A DNA stretch of 64,000 bases, from assembly GCA_963835065.1 (NCBI GenBank), contig CAWIEK010000011.1, positions 105,145-169,144 of the forward strand, read 5' to 3'. The notes beneath the pieces were generated by a model. It searched no databases. It saw only the letters and a program-made list of their open reading frames with translations, and had not been told where the DNA came from. Position 1 is the stretch's first letter; each line of letters starts with the position of its first letter. The position numbers were made by a program, and so were the translations under genes. Origin of the DNA: an uncultured Chthonomonadaceae bacterium (lineage in GTDB: Bacteria; Armatimonadota; Chthonomonadetes; Chthonomonadales; Chthonomonadaceae). Positions 46,571-50,401 of this stretch are shown piece after piece.

Positions 46571-47300
46571 ATGTCGCTGATGGACATTACCACGCTGAAC
46601 ACCGGCGCGGGAGCCTTTATTTCTTATCTGGAGGATTGGCTGGCGGACTTGCTGCCCCTGCCGTCTGGAAAGCCTGATTCAGGAAGCGGGCGGGCCGCAG
46701 CATATCGGCGTGTTTTGCGTGGATGTTATCAACGGTTTTTGTTACGAGGGACCGTTGGCGAGCGAACGGGTTGCCGACATTGTGCCGCCCATCGTGGATT
46801 TATTTGAAAACCTGTATGCGGCGGGCGTGGAGCATTTCGTGCTGACCCATGACGCGCACAATCCGGCGGCGGTGGAATTCGCCGATTATCCGCCGCATTG
46901 CATCCGGGGTACAAGCGAATCTGACATCGTACCCGCGCTGATGCAGTTACCGTTTGCCTCCAAGTTCCATCTGATTTCCAAAAACAGCATCTCTTCCAGC
47001 GAAGGCACGACGCTCGACGCCTGGCTGGACGCGCATCCCGATATTACGCACCACATTGTCGTGGGCGACTGCACCGACATTTGCGCGTACCAACTGGCGA
47101 TGCACCTCAAATTACGCGCCAACGCCGCCGACAAACTCCATCCCGTTATCGTGCCTGCCGACTGCATGGACACCTACGATATTCCCGTCGAAGTGGCGCA
47201 GGCCGAAGACATCCCCGCCCATCCCGCCGATGTATTCCATGCCATGTTTCTGTACAGCATGGAGTGTAACGGCGTCCGCGTTGTCGCCAACATCCGCTAA
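46571..47300 (+). CDS. Isochorismatase/nicotinamidase family cysteine hydrolase; frameshift near 46663
   Basis: VDVINGF, DAH, PPHC..GT.E, GDCTDIC; N-terminal 30 aa in another frame with an RBS. Confidence 0.85.
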
Positions 47301-47429: not shown

Positions 47430-47459
47430 TTGACAAAGCGTAGGTCAACTGAGTATAAT
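47430..47459 (+). promoter_or_regulatory. Sigma-70 promoter of the T-box leader
   Basis: TTGACA-18 nt-TATAAT. Confidence 0.8.
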
Positions 47460-47511
47460 GGGCAAAATTTGAACAATTTACCCTTCCTTATCGGGAAGGA
47501 ACCAATTCTAA

Positions 47512-47926
47512 AAGCATCGAGAAGGTGGAGTACGCAGGCGGCGCGATCACAGCGAACCGGGTTGGTGTGAGCCGGCATGAGCGAACCTGCTGAAATGGCC
47601 TTTGAGCTGCGATCCTGAAAGGGGTAAGAGATAAGGGATAAGGGATAAGAAGATACGTTAATCTTCATCCTTCATCCTTTATCCTTCATCCTTATTAAGC
47701 ATCGCCGGGGGGCTCCCGTTACAGGGTTAGAGCCTCAACGTTTTTCGATTTTCGATTGCTGATTTGCCTCTGATTCACAGGGCGTTTAATCGTCAATCCA
47801 CAATCGTCAATCCGTTGGCGCTCGCTGAGGCCGTGACCGCAAGGGCGCGGCGAAGACAGGTGGAACCACGAAGGCAGCAGCCTCTCGTCCTGTGCATTAC
47901 TCATGCATGCCGGGCGAGAGGCTTTT
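47512..47926 (+). ncRNA. Transcriptional T-box riboswitch, probable Met (AUG) specifier
   Basis: Stem I with GA motifs, AGTA (47529), AGCGA bulge, GGTGTGA loop, GAA-ATG-G (47592..47598); CCGTTA box; T-box AGGTGGAACCACG (47858..47870); antiterminator/terminator to 47926. Confidence 0.9.
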
Positions 47927-48058
47927 GTATTTTGTATTTTCGATTGACGATTTAACGCAGGCGCGCTTGCTTCTGTCTGTAACCGGCAATCCAAAAGACT
48001 CACGCCTCGAACCGTATACAATCGAAAATCGAAAATCGAAAATCGCAAGGGGGCTGGA

Positions 48059-49312
48059 ATGAAGAAAACTTTGGGAATGAAGTGCCGCGAGTGTGGGGAA
48101 GAATACCCGCTTGCGCCCATTCATGTGTGTGAACTCTGTTTTGGGCCACTGGAGGTCATGCTCAACTGGGAAGAAATCGCGCCCCGCGTGACGCGGGAAA
48201 GCATACAGGCCGGGCCATCCTCTATGTGGCGTTACCATGATCTGCTGCCCGTAGAAGGCCCGCCGACAGTCGGTAAAAACGTCGGCTGGACTCCCTTGAT
48301 TAAGGCGAATAATCTGGGCCGCGAACTTGGGCTGAATAATCTATACATCAAAAACGATGCCGTCAACCATCCGACGCTTTCTTTTAAGGATCGGGTTGTC
48401 GCGTTGGCCTTGACCAAAGCGCGCGAATTCGGCTATGATACCGTAGCCTGCGCAAGCACCGGCAATCTTGCCAACAGCGTGGCCGCCCATGCTGCGGAAG
48501 GCGGCTTCAAGTCCTACGTCTTTATTCCGTCCGATCTGGAGCAGGGCAAGGTGTTGGGAACGCTGGTGTACGGCACGAATGTACTGTCCGTATCGGGCAA
48601 CTATGACGAAGTGAACCGCCTTTGCGCCGAAGCGGGCGACAAGTATGGCTGGGCGTTCGTCAACATCAACCTGCGCCCCTTTTATGGCGACGGCTCCAAA
48701 TCTTTCGGATATGAAATCGCGGAACAGCTTGGCTGGCGCGCGCCCGACCACGTAGTTGTGCCATGCGCGGGCGGTTCGCTGATTTCCAAAATCTACAAGG
48801 GCTTGAATGAACTGGATCGCCTGAAACTCATTGACGGCGGCGTTCCGACGCGGATGTACGCGGCGCAGGCCAAAGGCTGTTCGCCCATCACAACGGCCAT
48901 AAAAACCCATGCCGAAGTTTTCCTGCCGCAAAAGCCCAATACCATCGCCAAATCCATCGCTATCGGCAACCCCGCGGACGGATACGTGGCAATGGAAACC
49001 GTGCGCAAGTCGGGCGGCTGGGCGGACGATGTGACGGATGAGGAAGTCATTGACGGCATCCGCCTGCTCGGACGAACCGAAGGCATCTTTACCGAAACCG
49101 CAGGCGGCGTCACCGTGTCCGTCGCCAAAAAACTGGCCGAGCAGGGGCGGTTCGGCAGAAACGATGTTGTTGTCATCGCCATCACCGGCAATGGCCTGAA
49201 AACGCAGGAAGCCGTCACCGGGCAGCTAGGGCAAACCGTCGGCATTGCCCCCAACCTGGCTTCCCTCGACGCCGCGCTGAAAACCGAAAAACTGCTGGCG
49301 GGAGTAGGATAG
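48059..49312 (+). CDS. thrC: Threonine synthase family PLP enzyme (probably MetM-type homocysteine synthase)
   Basis: N-terminal CxxC..CxxC, PTLSFKDR, CASTGNLA, NLRPFY, ITGNGLK. Confidence 0.9.
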   Translation: MKKTLGMKCRECGEEYPLAPIHVCELCFGPLEVMLNWEEIAPRVTRESIQAGPSSMWRYHDLLPVEGPPTVGKNVGWTPLIKANNLGRELGLNNLYIKNDAVNHPTLSFKDRVVALALTKAREFGYDTVACASTGNLANSVAAHAAEGGFKSYVFIPSDLEQGKVLGTLVYGTNVLSVSGNYDEVNRLCAEAGDKYGWAFVNINLRPFYGDGSKSFGYEIAEQLGWRAPDHVVVPCAGGSLISKIYKGLNELDRLKLIDGGVPTRMYAAQAKGCSPITTAIKTHAEVFLPQKPNTIAKSIAIGNPADGYVAMETVRKSGGWADDVTDEEVIDGIRLLGRTEGIFTETAGGVTVSVAKKLAEQGRFGRNDVVVIAITGNGLKTQEAVTGQLGQTVGIAPNLASLDAALKTEKLLAGVG

Positions 49313-49315
49313 AGG

Positions 49316-49434
49316 AAAGTAGTCAGTAGTCAGTAGTCAGTAGAACCCCGCTTTTGGAAGCCTTCTGCAAAGTGTAAGGATGTGAGTAGACTTGCATTTC
49401 TACTGACTACTGACTACTGACTACTGACTACTTT
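49316..49434. repeat. Palindromic element with (GTAGTCA)n arms, copy B
   Basis: Same arms as copy A; core homologous, in reverse orientation. Confidence 0.9.
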
Positions 49435-49449
49435 TCAGAAGGAGATTTC

Positions 49450-49725
49450 ATGCCTGTAAACGTACTGATACCAACGCCCCTGCGCAAGTTCACAGAGAAT
49501 GAGGATACCGTGTCCGTGTCGGCTGGCAGCATCGGCGGCATTGTGACGGAACTGTCGCAGCGCTTTCCCGGTATCGTCAAGCCACTGCTGGACGACAAAG
49601 GGGAATTGCGCAAGTTTGTGAATATTTATTTGAATGGGGAAGACATTCGTTTCGCGTCGGGCGTGGACACGCCAACCAAAGACGGCGATGAAGTGTCTAT
49701 CGTGCCTGCCATTGCCGGCGGGTAA
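49450..49725 (+). CDS. MoaD/ThiS ubiquitin-like sulfur carrier (CysO/MetO-like)
   Basis: IPTPLR, FVNIYLN.EDIRF, C-terminal IAGG. Confidence 0.93.
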   Translation: MPVNVLIPTPLRKFTENEDTVSVSAGSIGGIVTELSQRFPGIVKPLLDDKGELRKFVNIYLNGEDIRFASGVDTPTKDGDEVSIVPAIAGG

Positions 49726-49744
49726 AGAAGGATGAATTGCAGCC

Positions 49745-50272
49745 ATGCCAGTAGTTACCGTAAACCTTAGCGCGAAGAACGAAATGGCGCGTCTGCCCTT
49801 AATCTGGCGATTGGGCCGCAAGTTCAACGTCGTTACCAATGTGCGGGCAGCCCGCGCCACGCCGGACTTCGCCGTTGTCGCGCTGGATGTGGAAGGTTCC
49901 ACGCAGGAAGTGGAGCAGGCCACCAGCTATCTTCGCGCGCTCGGTGTGACGGAAGGCAGTGGCGACGCTCTGGTTCCCGCCCGCGTATGGGAACCCGAAG
50001 ACACGGTTTCGCGGGCCAACACGATCTACGTCCGCTTGAATCCCGTGAACCCGGCACAGTACAACGTTCCCGTGCTATATCGCCTGGGCAAAGATTTCGA
50101 TGTCGTGTACACGCTGGAACACGCCGGTTTCGATGACGAAGAGGGCGGCTATGTGGAAATCGCCATTTCCGGGCCACTCGGAGAAATCCAGCGCGCCATC
50201 GCCTACCTGCACACCACCGGCCTGCACGTCAATCCCCGGCAGCGTTCCGTAACGGATTATGGAAATCTTTAG
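49745..50272 (+). CDS. Protein with two tandem NIL domains
   Basis: Two repeats of P.I/LxRLG+.F.V......A......L.G....I/V..A..YL...G. Confidence 0.8.
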   Translation: MPVVTVNLSAKNEMARLPLIWRLGRKFNVVTNVRAARATPDFAVVALDVEGSTQEVEQATSYLRALGVTEGSGDALVPARVWEPEDTVSRANTIYVRLNPVNPAQYNVPVLYRLGKDFDVVYTLEHAGFDDEEGGYVEIAISGPLGEIQRAIAYLHTTGLHVNPRQRSVTDYGNL

Positions 50273-50401
50273 GAAGTAGTCAGTAGCCAGTAGTCAGTAG
50301 TCAGTAGAGAAACCCGTTCTTGTAAGTTGTTATTGAGCCATGCATCTACGAGTAACAGGTATTTCTACTGATTACTGACTACTGGCTACTGACTACTTCC
50401 T
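50271..50401. repeat. Palindromic element with (GTAGTCA)n arms, copy C
   Basis: Variant unit GTAGCCA mirrored as TGGCTAC in the opposite arm; core homologous to copy A. Confidence 0.9.

Follow-up and report, generated by a model that had tools for sequence, protein, structure and literature searches.

A methionine-specific T-box upstream of a probable MetM/MetO-type homocysteine operon in the Chthonomonadaceae

The work of Hasebe et al. 2024 is said to have described, in Streptomyces albulus, a thiocarboxylate route in which MetM, MetO, Mec and MoeZ turn O-phosphohomoserine into homocysteine. Here, we examine a 64,000-nt stretch of DNA from an uncultured member of the Chthonomonadaceae (contig CAWIEK010000011.1 of assembly GCA_963835065.1, positions 105,145-169,144, forward strand; hereafter the window, whose first letter is position 1 of all coordinates given without a contig), in which a T-box leader precedes genes for a pyridoxal phosphate (PLP) enzyme annotated thrC, a small sulfur carrier and a protein with two NIL domains. 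We conclude that these genes very probably form a MetM/MetO homocysteine operon under the control of a methionine T-box. As described in the accessible parts of two papers (PMC12172450; PMC13759103 with its supplement), metM and metO of S. albulus have the combination of SAM-I riboswitch and carrier gene seen at the actinobacterial loci considered below. T-box control of methionine genes has its own precedent in the Staphylococcus aureus metICFE-mdh leader, which binds initiator tRNA strongly and elongators weakly, by a mechanism left open in the portion of that report available to us (PMC3771891). Similarly limited excerpts indicate that MetN binds methionine across a C2-domain dimer via N295 (PMC6233128) and that NIL is also a component of the DUF39 route (PMC5764234). 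The principal features of the locus are as follows.

47430..47459, + strand: sigma-70-type promoter, TTGACA-18 nt-TATAAT, 12/12 consensus positions
47508..47895, + strand: transcriptional T-box leader (Stem I, Stem II, Stem IIA/B, Stem III and antiterminator), matched by RF00230
47595..47597, + strand: specifier codon AUG (Met) in the loop GAA-AUG-G, closed by helix AAGG/CCUU, from the RF00230 alignment, folding and 49 leaders
47861..47864, + strand: antiterminator bulge UGGA, whose variable base N (here A) pairs with neither A73 of the elongator nor C73 of the initiator
47880..47932, + strand: intrinsic terminator hairpin with U-tract, overlapping the 3' strand of the antiterminator
48059..49312, + strand: MetM-like PLP enzyme, annotated thrC, 417 aa, with an N-terminal CxxC...CxxC motif (PALP, TIGR00260)
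49450..49725, + strand: MetO-like ThiS/MoaD carrier, 91 aa, mature C-terminal GG (PF02597, E 4.5e-15)
49745..50272, + strand: tandem NIL-NIL protein, 175 aa, two MetN-C2-like ferredoxin folds (PF09383, structure model)

The original prediction had described a consensus promoter and a complete transcriptional T-box with a GAA-ATG-G loop, and all of these elements are in place. It had also assigned the specifier to methionine, which the comparative evidence bears out: the codon aligns to AUG, not ACC. Taken alone, the window leader is ambiguous, its GAAAUGG being compatible with AUG or, with the helix shifted, UGG. We therefore rely on a set of leaders with a parsable Stem I upstream of orthologues of the enzyme (40 genomes and 9 metagenome contigs, some of them near-duplicates). 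By RF00230 alignment and specifier parsing, AUG is the specifier in 49/49, and in 49/49 it obeys the positional rule given in the accessible part of TBDB, by which the codon occupies positions 2-4 before the end of the specifier loop. The register is fixed because changes in the closing helix, G-C/A-U exchanges, are compensatory. In a count where the 5' strand of one row was mis-picked, 190/196 closing-helix pairs are Watson-Crick in the AUG register, versus 109/196 at +1. The UGG and GGC frames are excluded because the flanking spacer and the following base vary: AUG is preceded by no extra base in 36 leaders, by A in 8, C in 4 and U in 1, and followed by G in 41, A in 7 and U in 1. As a calibration, the same parsing could read 48/90 T-box loci of the order, of which 22 gave GUC, upstream of valS, and 8 gave CUC, with leuS confirmed downstream of one.

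Could the leader instead read a tRNA with U73 in another frame (Gly GGC, Thr or Cys), or tRNA-Trp (UGG)? In this genome U73 is found in tRNA-Gly, tRNA-Cys and tRNA-Thr(CGU), with each of which UGGA would form a Watson-Crick pair, and a +1 helix, AAGG/CUUU, can be drawn in the window alone. Against this stand the pair counts just given, the A or U that follows AUG in some leaders and destroys both UGG and GGC, a loop devoid of ACN and UGY codons, and the G73 of tRNA-Trp; such a reading has almost no probability left. The register analysis of the 49 leaders rejected the Trp (UGG), Gly (GGC), Asn (AAU), Thr and Cys frames.

The 417-aa enzyme belongs to the PALP family (E 2e-69), and named close homologues come from the Chthonomonadaceae, Armatimonadota. 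This genome also encodes a second, short ThrC, as the original prediction had suggested checking (351 aa, 37% identity to the 417-aa enzyme), and so do 39/40 relatives, none being seen in genome G154. A quick maximum-likelihood analysis of 80 proteins places the window enzyme and 19 actinobacterial ones in a common clade (Shimodaira-Hasegawa-like approximate likelihood ratio test, SH-aLRT, 99), with 22 short ThrC lying outside it. It shares 49-54% identity with Streptomyces orthologues. Of 31 diagnostic columns, 27 show the MetM-like residue in the window enzyme and 2 that of ThrC. The search pattern itself fixes three of the 31, and leaving these out gives 25/28 for the MetM-like residue. ThrC residues lost include those at R160, S155 and N188 (numbering of the genome's own short ThrC). 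For the actinobacterial long enzymes, all 20 loci scanned, out of a set of 81, have SAM-I upstream, and a MoaD-like match adjoins the gene in 57/81; short ThrC genes of Streptomyces adjoin homoserine dehydrogenase. By these comparisons the window enzyme is orthologous to the Streptomyces MetM-like proteins rather than to ThrC. The earlier proposal that this "thrC" makes homocysteine gains support from its grouping with SAM-I- and MoaD-linked proteins and not with short ThrC, and the 417-aa protein is likely a homocysteine synthase. The carrier encoded downstream ends in AIAGG, with G90 and G91 invariant in 30 orthologues. The anatomy of the switch, its AUG register, the three genes and the clade of the enzyme can all be read from the sequences.

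The gene order varies in places. Family f29 has an extra gene between the MetM-like gene and the carrier in its Met-T-box operon (L093:3975-4694, L097, L103, L115), which in L093 gives HemQ/chlorite dismutase-like model matches below cut-off. In genus g3, which has UGGG leaders, a Cys-containing gene of ~210 aa separates the carrier from the NIL-NIL gene (L061:4124-4756, L062:592-1272).

From this gene content we infer the following pathway, with HomK, MoeZ, the MetM-like enzyme, JAMM and MetH as its steps. When uncharged tRNA-Met accumulates, the AUG T-box would likely permit read-through and so switch on the homocysteine operon. Homoserine would be phosphorylated by a HomK-type enzyme, and a MoeZ-type enzyme, for which the candidate is a ThiS-MoeZ fusion on contig C42, would adenylate and thiocarboxylate the C-terminal glycine of the carrier. 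The MetM-like enzyme would then swap the phosphate of O-phosphohomoserine for carrier-bound sulfur, a JAMM peptidase encoded beside cysM on C42 would release homocysteine, and MetH would convert it to methionine.

Several of the genes needed are found elsewhere in the genome. A MoeZ/MoeB-rhodanese and a JAMM peptidase, both named in the original prediction as genes to look for, are present: the ThiS-MoeZ fusion, for which the best models (E 2e-166) stay below cut-off, and the JAMM (Prok-JAB) gene beside cysM. The fusion (G000:C42:9989-11524, L024) reads in frame from a ThiS/CysO-like carrier into MoeZ (ThiF and rhodanese parts) and contains an internal AGG; freeing this carrier would need JAMM cleavage. 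Hom, MetH and CysK are also encoded. As for homoserine phosphorylation, HomK (TIGR02535) has been shown to replace ThrB, according to the accessible part of PMC13759103. An enzyme of this type is above cut-off and intact in 4/4 relatives, and HomK appears to stand in for ThrB in the family. A search of this genome for a canonical or APH-type homoserine kinase found none, weak GHMP matches lying far below cut-off, and the short-thrC neighbourhoods showed no recurring kinase. Searches of this genome, which is 92% complete, did not turn up MetX, MetA, MetY or DUF39; the original prediction had suggested a check for the absence of metA, metX, metB and metY. The sole Cys/Met-metabolism PLP enzyme scores best as racemase/MGL-like, below every listed cut-off. 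In 33 genomes of the order, the MetM-like gene occurs without MetX in 15, MetX without the MetM-like gene in 13, both in 3 and neither in 2, and MetY tracks MetX (family f1, 2/17; f2, 14/15). The MetM-like gene alternates with this methionine pathway gene, and not with ThrC.

A number of points weigh against the homocysteine operon. The genome being 92% complete, every gene absence means "not found". The 33 genomes are related rather than independent, so that the MetM/MetX pattern amounts to few events. ThrB above cut-off was found neither in this genome nor in any of 19 genomes of the family, and in this assembly homK is broken across two frames (G000:C71:20293-21478), possibly by an assembly error. 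G154, a member of the family, has the operon with no recognisable T-box. UGGA does not satisfy the bulge-discriminator pairing rule (Watson-Crick or G-U) with either tRNA-Met. The double-NIL gene lies away from the operon in 3/16 genomes, and NIL relatives occur where a MetM-like gene was not found (31/31 vs 0/31 in family f11, 18/18 vs 0/18 in f16). Orthology was judged with Streptomyces orthologues as proxies for S. albulus MetM. Additionally, the 417-aa enzyme scores above the TIGR00260 thrC cut-off, and, according to the accessible part of PMC12172450, threonine synthase and deaminase activities were seen in vitro for a Microcystis homologue (51.6% to MetM), which was considered not to function fully as MetM.

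These last two points, together with G154, where no short ThrC is seen, would suit a second threonine synthase or a threonine deaminase under methionine control, with the carrier serving another pathway. We consider this improbable: a short ThrC is already present in this genome and in nearly all of its relatives, ThrC-specific residues are lost, methionine-linked switches accompany the enzyme in two phyla, and mutual exclusion is with MetX, not ThrC. Equally small is the chance that the sulfur goes into some other product, for instance cysteine or cysteate made from phosphoserine with a thiocarboxylated carrier or free sulfide. Related PLP families do carry out such reactions, the enzyme weakly matches the cysteate synthase model TIGR03844 (E 3.8e-15), and cysK/cysM and sulfite reductase lie in some orthologous loci; but that match reaches 55.6 bits where the cut-off is 324.9, CysK and CysM with JAMM are already in the genome, the specifier is Met rather than Cys, and no other homocysteine route was found.

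Within the proposed homocysteine operon, the role of the third gene is of particular interest. PF09383 matches its product above cut-off over two stretches (E 3.6e-14), and MetN matches have E 3e-4. A structure model (predicted local distance difference test, pLDDT, 87.5) has MetN C2/NIL domains as its top three VIA matches, with middling Z scores of 7.1-7.7; the second domain gives Z 7.7 and a root-mean-square deviation of 2.2 over 76 residues. Foldseek returned only low-TM ferredoxin-like matches. MetN N295 and A299 align to N32 and A36 in the first domain and to positions 123 and 127 in the second. The N295 equivalent is Asn32 (Asn in 94/119 relatives) in the first case and, in the window protein, Thr123 (Asn in 95/119 relatives) in the second. 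The double NIL is full-length in 16/17 sampled genomes of the family, adjoining the operon in 13/16; it seems to have arisen by duplication of the single NIL that sister families have. Elsewhere, carrier (MoaD)-NIL fusions occur in 3 genomes, and at 6/6 loci examined for it a NIL paralogue lies directly next to metX, 3 of them confirmed by hidden Markov model.

These observations suggest that NIL-NIL is most likely a methionine-binding regulatory or accessory module of methionine synthesis. The original prediction had suggested that it may be a methionine-sensing or accessory subunit; its MetN-C2-like character and its tie to methionine genes stand, while the idea of a dedicated MetM subunit is weakened because single-domain relatives persist in families with no detected MetM-like gene, often with no methionine genes nearby. 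A literature search returned no specific report of a standalone NIL partner. This genome has another, single NIL gene (G000:C63:118143-118400; L026:8147-8401, minus strand), whose homologues abut metX in six other genomes and which may be all that remains of a metX locus since lost. It lies behind a 788-aa gene that encodes a glycogen debranching enzyme; a sulfite reductase identity for the latter was rejected.

The antiterminator bulge raises a separate question. Its variable base is normally the pairing partner of the tRNA discriminator (TBDB; PMC4695836), and the textbook discriminator of tRNA-Met is A73 (PMC9976931), as far as the available portions of these sources go. The original prediction had cautioned that UGGA suits a U discriminator, as in Thr, Cys or Gly tRNAs, better than the usual A73 of tRNA-Met. 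In fact, the mismatch is real and family-wide, and holds with both tRNA-Met; it points to neither Thr, Cys nor Gly. "Usual" applies to the elongator alone, since the initiator tRNA-Met of this genome (G000:C45:88898-88974, L098) has C73, with U1xU72. Elongator-type CAU tRNAs have A73 in 21/21 genes parsed (20 genomes), and initiators have C73 in 38/46 genes parsed (53 loci), including 15/15 within the family. Most initiators have an open 1:72 pair, with U72 mismatched to U1 or C1 (others at L118-L142 and L517-L541). UGGA forms only three Watson-Crick pairs with either tRNA-Met; UGGU outgroups satisfy the pairing rule with the elongator, and two UGGG leaders satisfy it with the initiator.

Among 28 leaders of the family, the bulge is UGGA in 24, UGGG in 2 (one genus) and UGGU in 2 (G318 and G335, the latter with a degenerate bulge). 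Out-of-family leaders have UGGU, with G053 (UGGA) as the single exception. Because the bulge stays UGGU in 29/30 Val/Leu T-boxes, the tRNAs for which have A73, the A is maintained in the family and is not a product of drift. On a tree of 45 leaders, N changes 4 times, with at least two origins of A, one of G and none of C. Co-variation of N with the tRNA-Met discriminator was tested and none was found: C73 initiators also accompany UGGU leaders, so tRNA and bulge did not change together.

This pattern suggests either a retuning towards the initiator, for which the initiator preference of the S. aureus met leader is a precedent, or a weakening of read-through by a tolerated mismatch, the two being about equally likely; as effector in this family, the initiator (C73) may be slightly more probable than the elongator (A73). 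The elongator (A73) may still be sensed, UGGA serving to lower read-through of a costly pathway, and to this we would give somewhat less than an even chance. UGGU in outgroup leaders matches elongator A73, U has returned in 2/28 family genomes, UGGU coexists with C73 initiators, and bulge substitutions in the S. aureus met leader had mixed effects, some enhancing binding, in the accessible part of PMC3771891. On the other hand, N changes to purines alone and never to C, as expected for a pyrimidine discriminator; G pairs in Watson-Crick fashion with C73, not A73; and Val/Leu leaders have retained their U. A more elaborate proposal, which we put forward tentatively and think rather unlikely as a whole, is that the Chthonomonadaceae Met T-box was retuned from the elongator (UGGU/A73) to a C73 initiator, typical of the lineage, with an open 1:72 pair. 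A bulge purine would reject A73 and accept C73 (A-C tolerated, G-C in one genus), so that a single base would gate homocysteine synthesis by initiator charging; NIL-NIL would in addition be a free-standing methionine sensor, the first such partner of the MetM/MetO route. A literature search gave no specific report of a C73 initiator. With C73 on one tRNA-Met and A73 on the other, and with UGGU, UGGA and UGGG all occurring in natural leaders, selectivity between initiator and elongator is open to direct test.

ARAGORN made 75 tRNA calls in this genome. Two are CAU tRNAs, of initiator and elongator type, with no obvious Ile2(CAU) among the calls; a UAU-anticodon tRNA lies within a dense tRNA array (C49:430274-432286), and a selenocysteine tRNA at G000:C1:196596-196693.

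The leader carries additional elements, listed here with a similar one downstream.

47621..47688 (approximate ends), + strand: repeat-derived hairpin in the Stem II loop, an insert in the Rfam alignment with a hairpin fold
47722..47814 (approximate ends), + strand: second repeat-derived hairpin, between Stem IIA/B and Stem III (Rfam alignment, folding)
49316..49436 (approximate ends), strand not assigned: intergenic repeat hairpin, not operon-specific, its motif present in 289 copies genome-wide

RF00230 matches the T-box over model positions 1-219, from Stem I through the antiterminator, with 66.7 bits (E 3.5e-14). The score is below the gathering score of 93 because two repeat hairpins are inserted; a whole-window Rfam scan at the gathering threshold misses the T-box, which the E-value mode finds, and orthologous leaders that lack the inserts score 94.5-106 bits. 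Motifs of the Stem II loop insert have 29 and 220 copies genome-wide, and that of the second insert 146. Hairpins of short tandem repeats (5-7 nt units) occur at 47621-47688, 47722-47814, 47925-48050, 49316-49436 and 50275-50400, and number in the hundreds genome-wide. Those inside the T-box occupy tolerated sites, the relatives G261 and G145 having different inserts at similar sites. RNAfold gives -28.1 kcal/mol for the terminator and -14.1 kcal/mol for the antiterminator; the two are mutually exclusive and share a 3' strand. The terminator was missed by a simple scan and seen by RNAfold. The promoter boxes lie at 47430-35 (TTGACA) and 47454-59 (TATAAT), with 18 nt between. Although 3.3 kb hold 5 promoter-like sites, versus 1.9 +/- 1.3 in shuffles, the one at 47430 is the single perfect one, and comparable elements lie upstream of most of the orthologous leaders examined. 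Upstream of the operon in G154 (L073, before C1:578854-580080) there is a promoter and a terminator-like remnant, with no recognisable Stem I or bulge. In 12/16 more distant loci of the phylum, neither a T-box nor a SAM switch was found at E<=0.01. Metagenome loci are mostly distant homologues, 9/80 having a parsable T-box.

Two near-identical valS T-boxes (GUC, UGGU) were seen, at C69:35105-35334 and C43:73959-74187. Frameshifts in the valS copy on C43 and in a second copy of metH (C60:192905-194741) suggest a second strain or indel-rich contigs. Upstream of the promoter, an isochorismatase/nicotinamidase-like gene (46571-47300) has an apparent frameshift close to its start when compared with the full-length genes of G261 and G075.

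The MetM/MetO pathway and methionine T-boxes are each already known. A literature search found no paper that joins a T-box with a MetM/MetO operon, Hasebe et al. 2024 itself being outside that search. The present assignment corrects a common thrC misannotation and, for a family whose genomes mostly yielded no MetA, MetX or MetY, offers a likely route to methionine. As a T-box names its own amino acid, it is also evidence for MetM function independent of the actinobacterial SAM switches. Genes of three different homocysteine routes have the NIL protein as a neighbour or fusion partner.

Like the S. albulus MetM route, the window has a ThrC-like PLP enzyme followed by a GG-ended carrier, methionine-linked RNA control, and MoeZ and JAMM elsewhere in the genome; unlike it, control is by a T-box instead of SAM-I, the carrier is already GG-ended, and phosphohomoserine would likely come from HomK. 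A NIL-NIL gene follows here, whereas no NIL match lies within ~2.5 kb at the 81 actinobacterial MetM-like loci (a weak BLAST test). The S. aureus met T-box, as the accessible portion of its description has it, similarly combines an AUG specifier, a terminator/antiterminator pair and control of methionine synthesis; there the bulge is canonical UGGU and the operon one of trans-sulfuration, whereas here we find UGGA, a C73 initiator and two inserts, in the Armatimonadota. With MetN C2/NIL and the NIL-ferredoxins MA1822/DvMF_0262, as partially seen in PMC6233128 and PMC5764234, NIL-NIL shares its fold and association with methionine genes, but it is a standalone tandem that carries neither ATPase nor ferredoxin, has Thr at the second N295 position, and occurs in a genome where DUF39 was not found. 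Finally, short ThrC of the B. subtilis/Thermus type (PDB 2zsj, 6cgq, 1uim, 2d1f) and the window enzyme are both fold-type II PLP proteins (E 3e-53 to 1e-45), and the TIGR00260 model accepts both; the window enzyme nevertheless shares only 33-38% identity with them, falls in a separate clade, differs at most diagnostic sites, and has an extra N-terminal four-Cys motif and an adjacent carrier gene.

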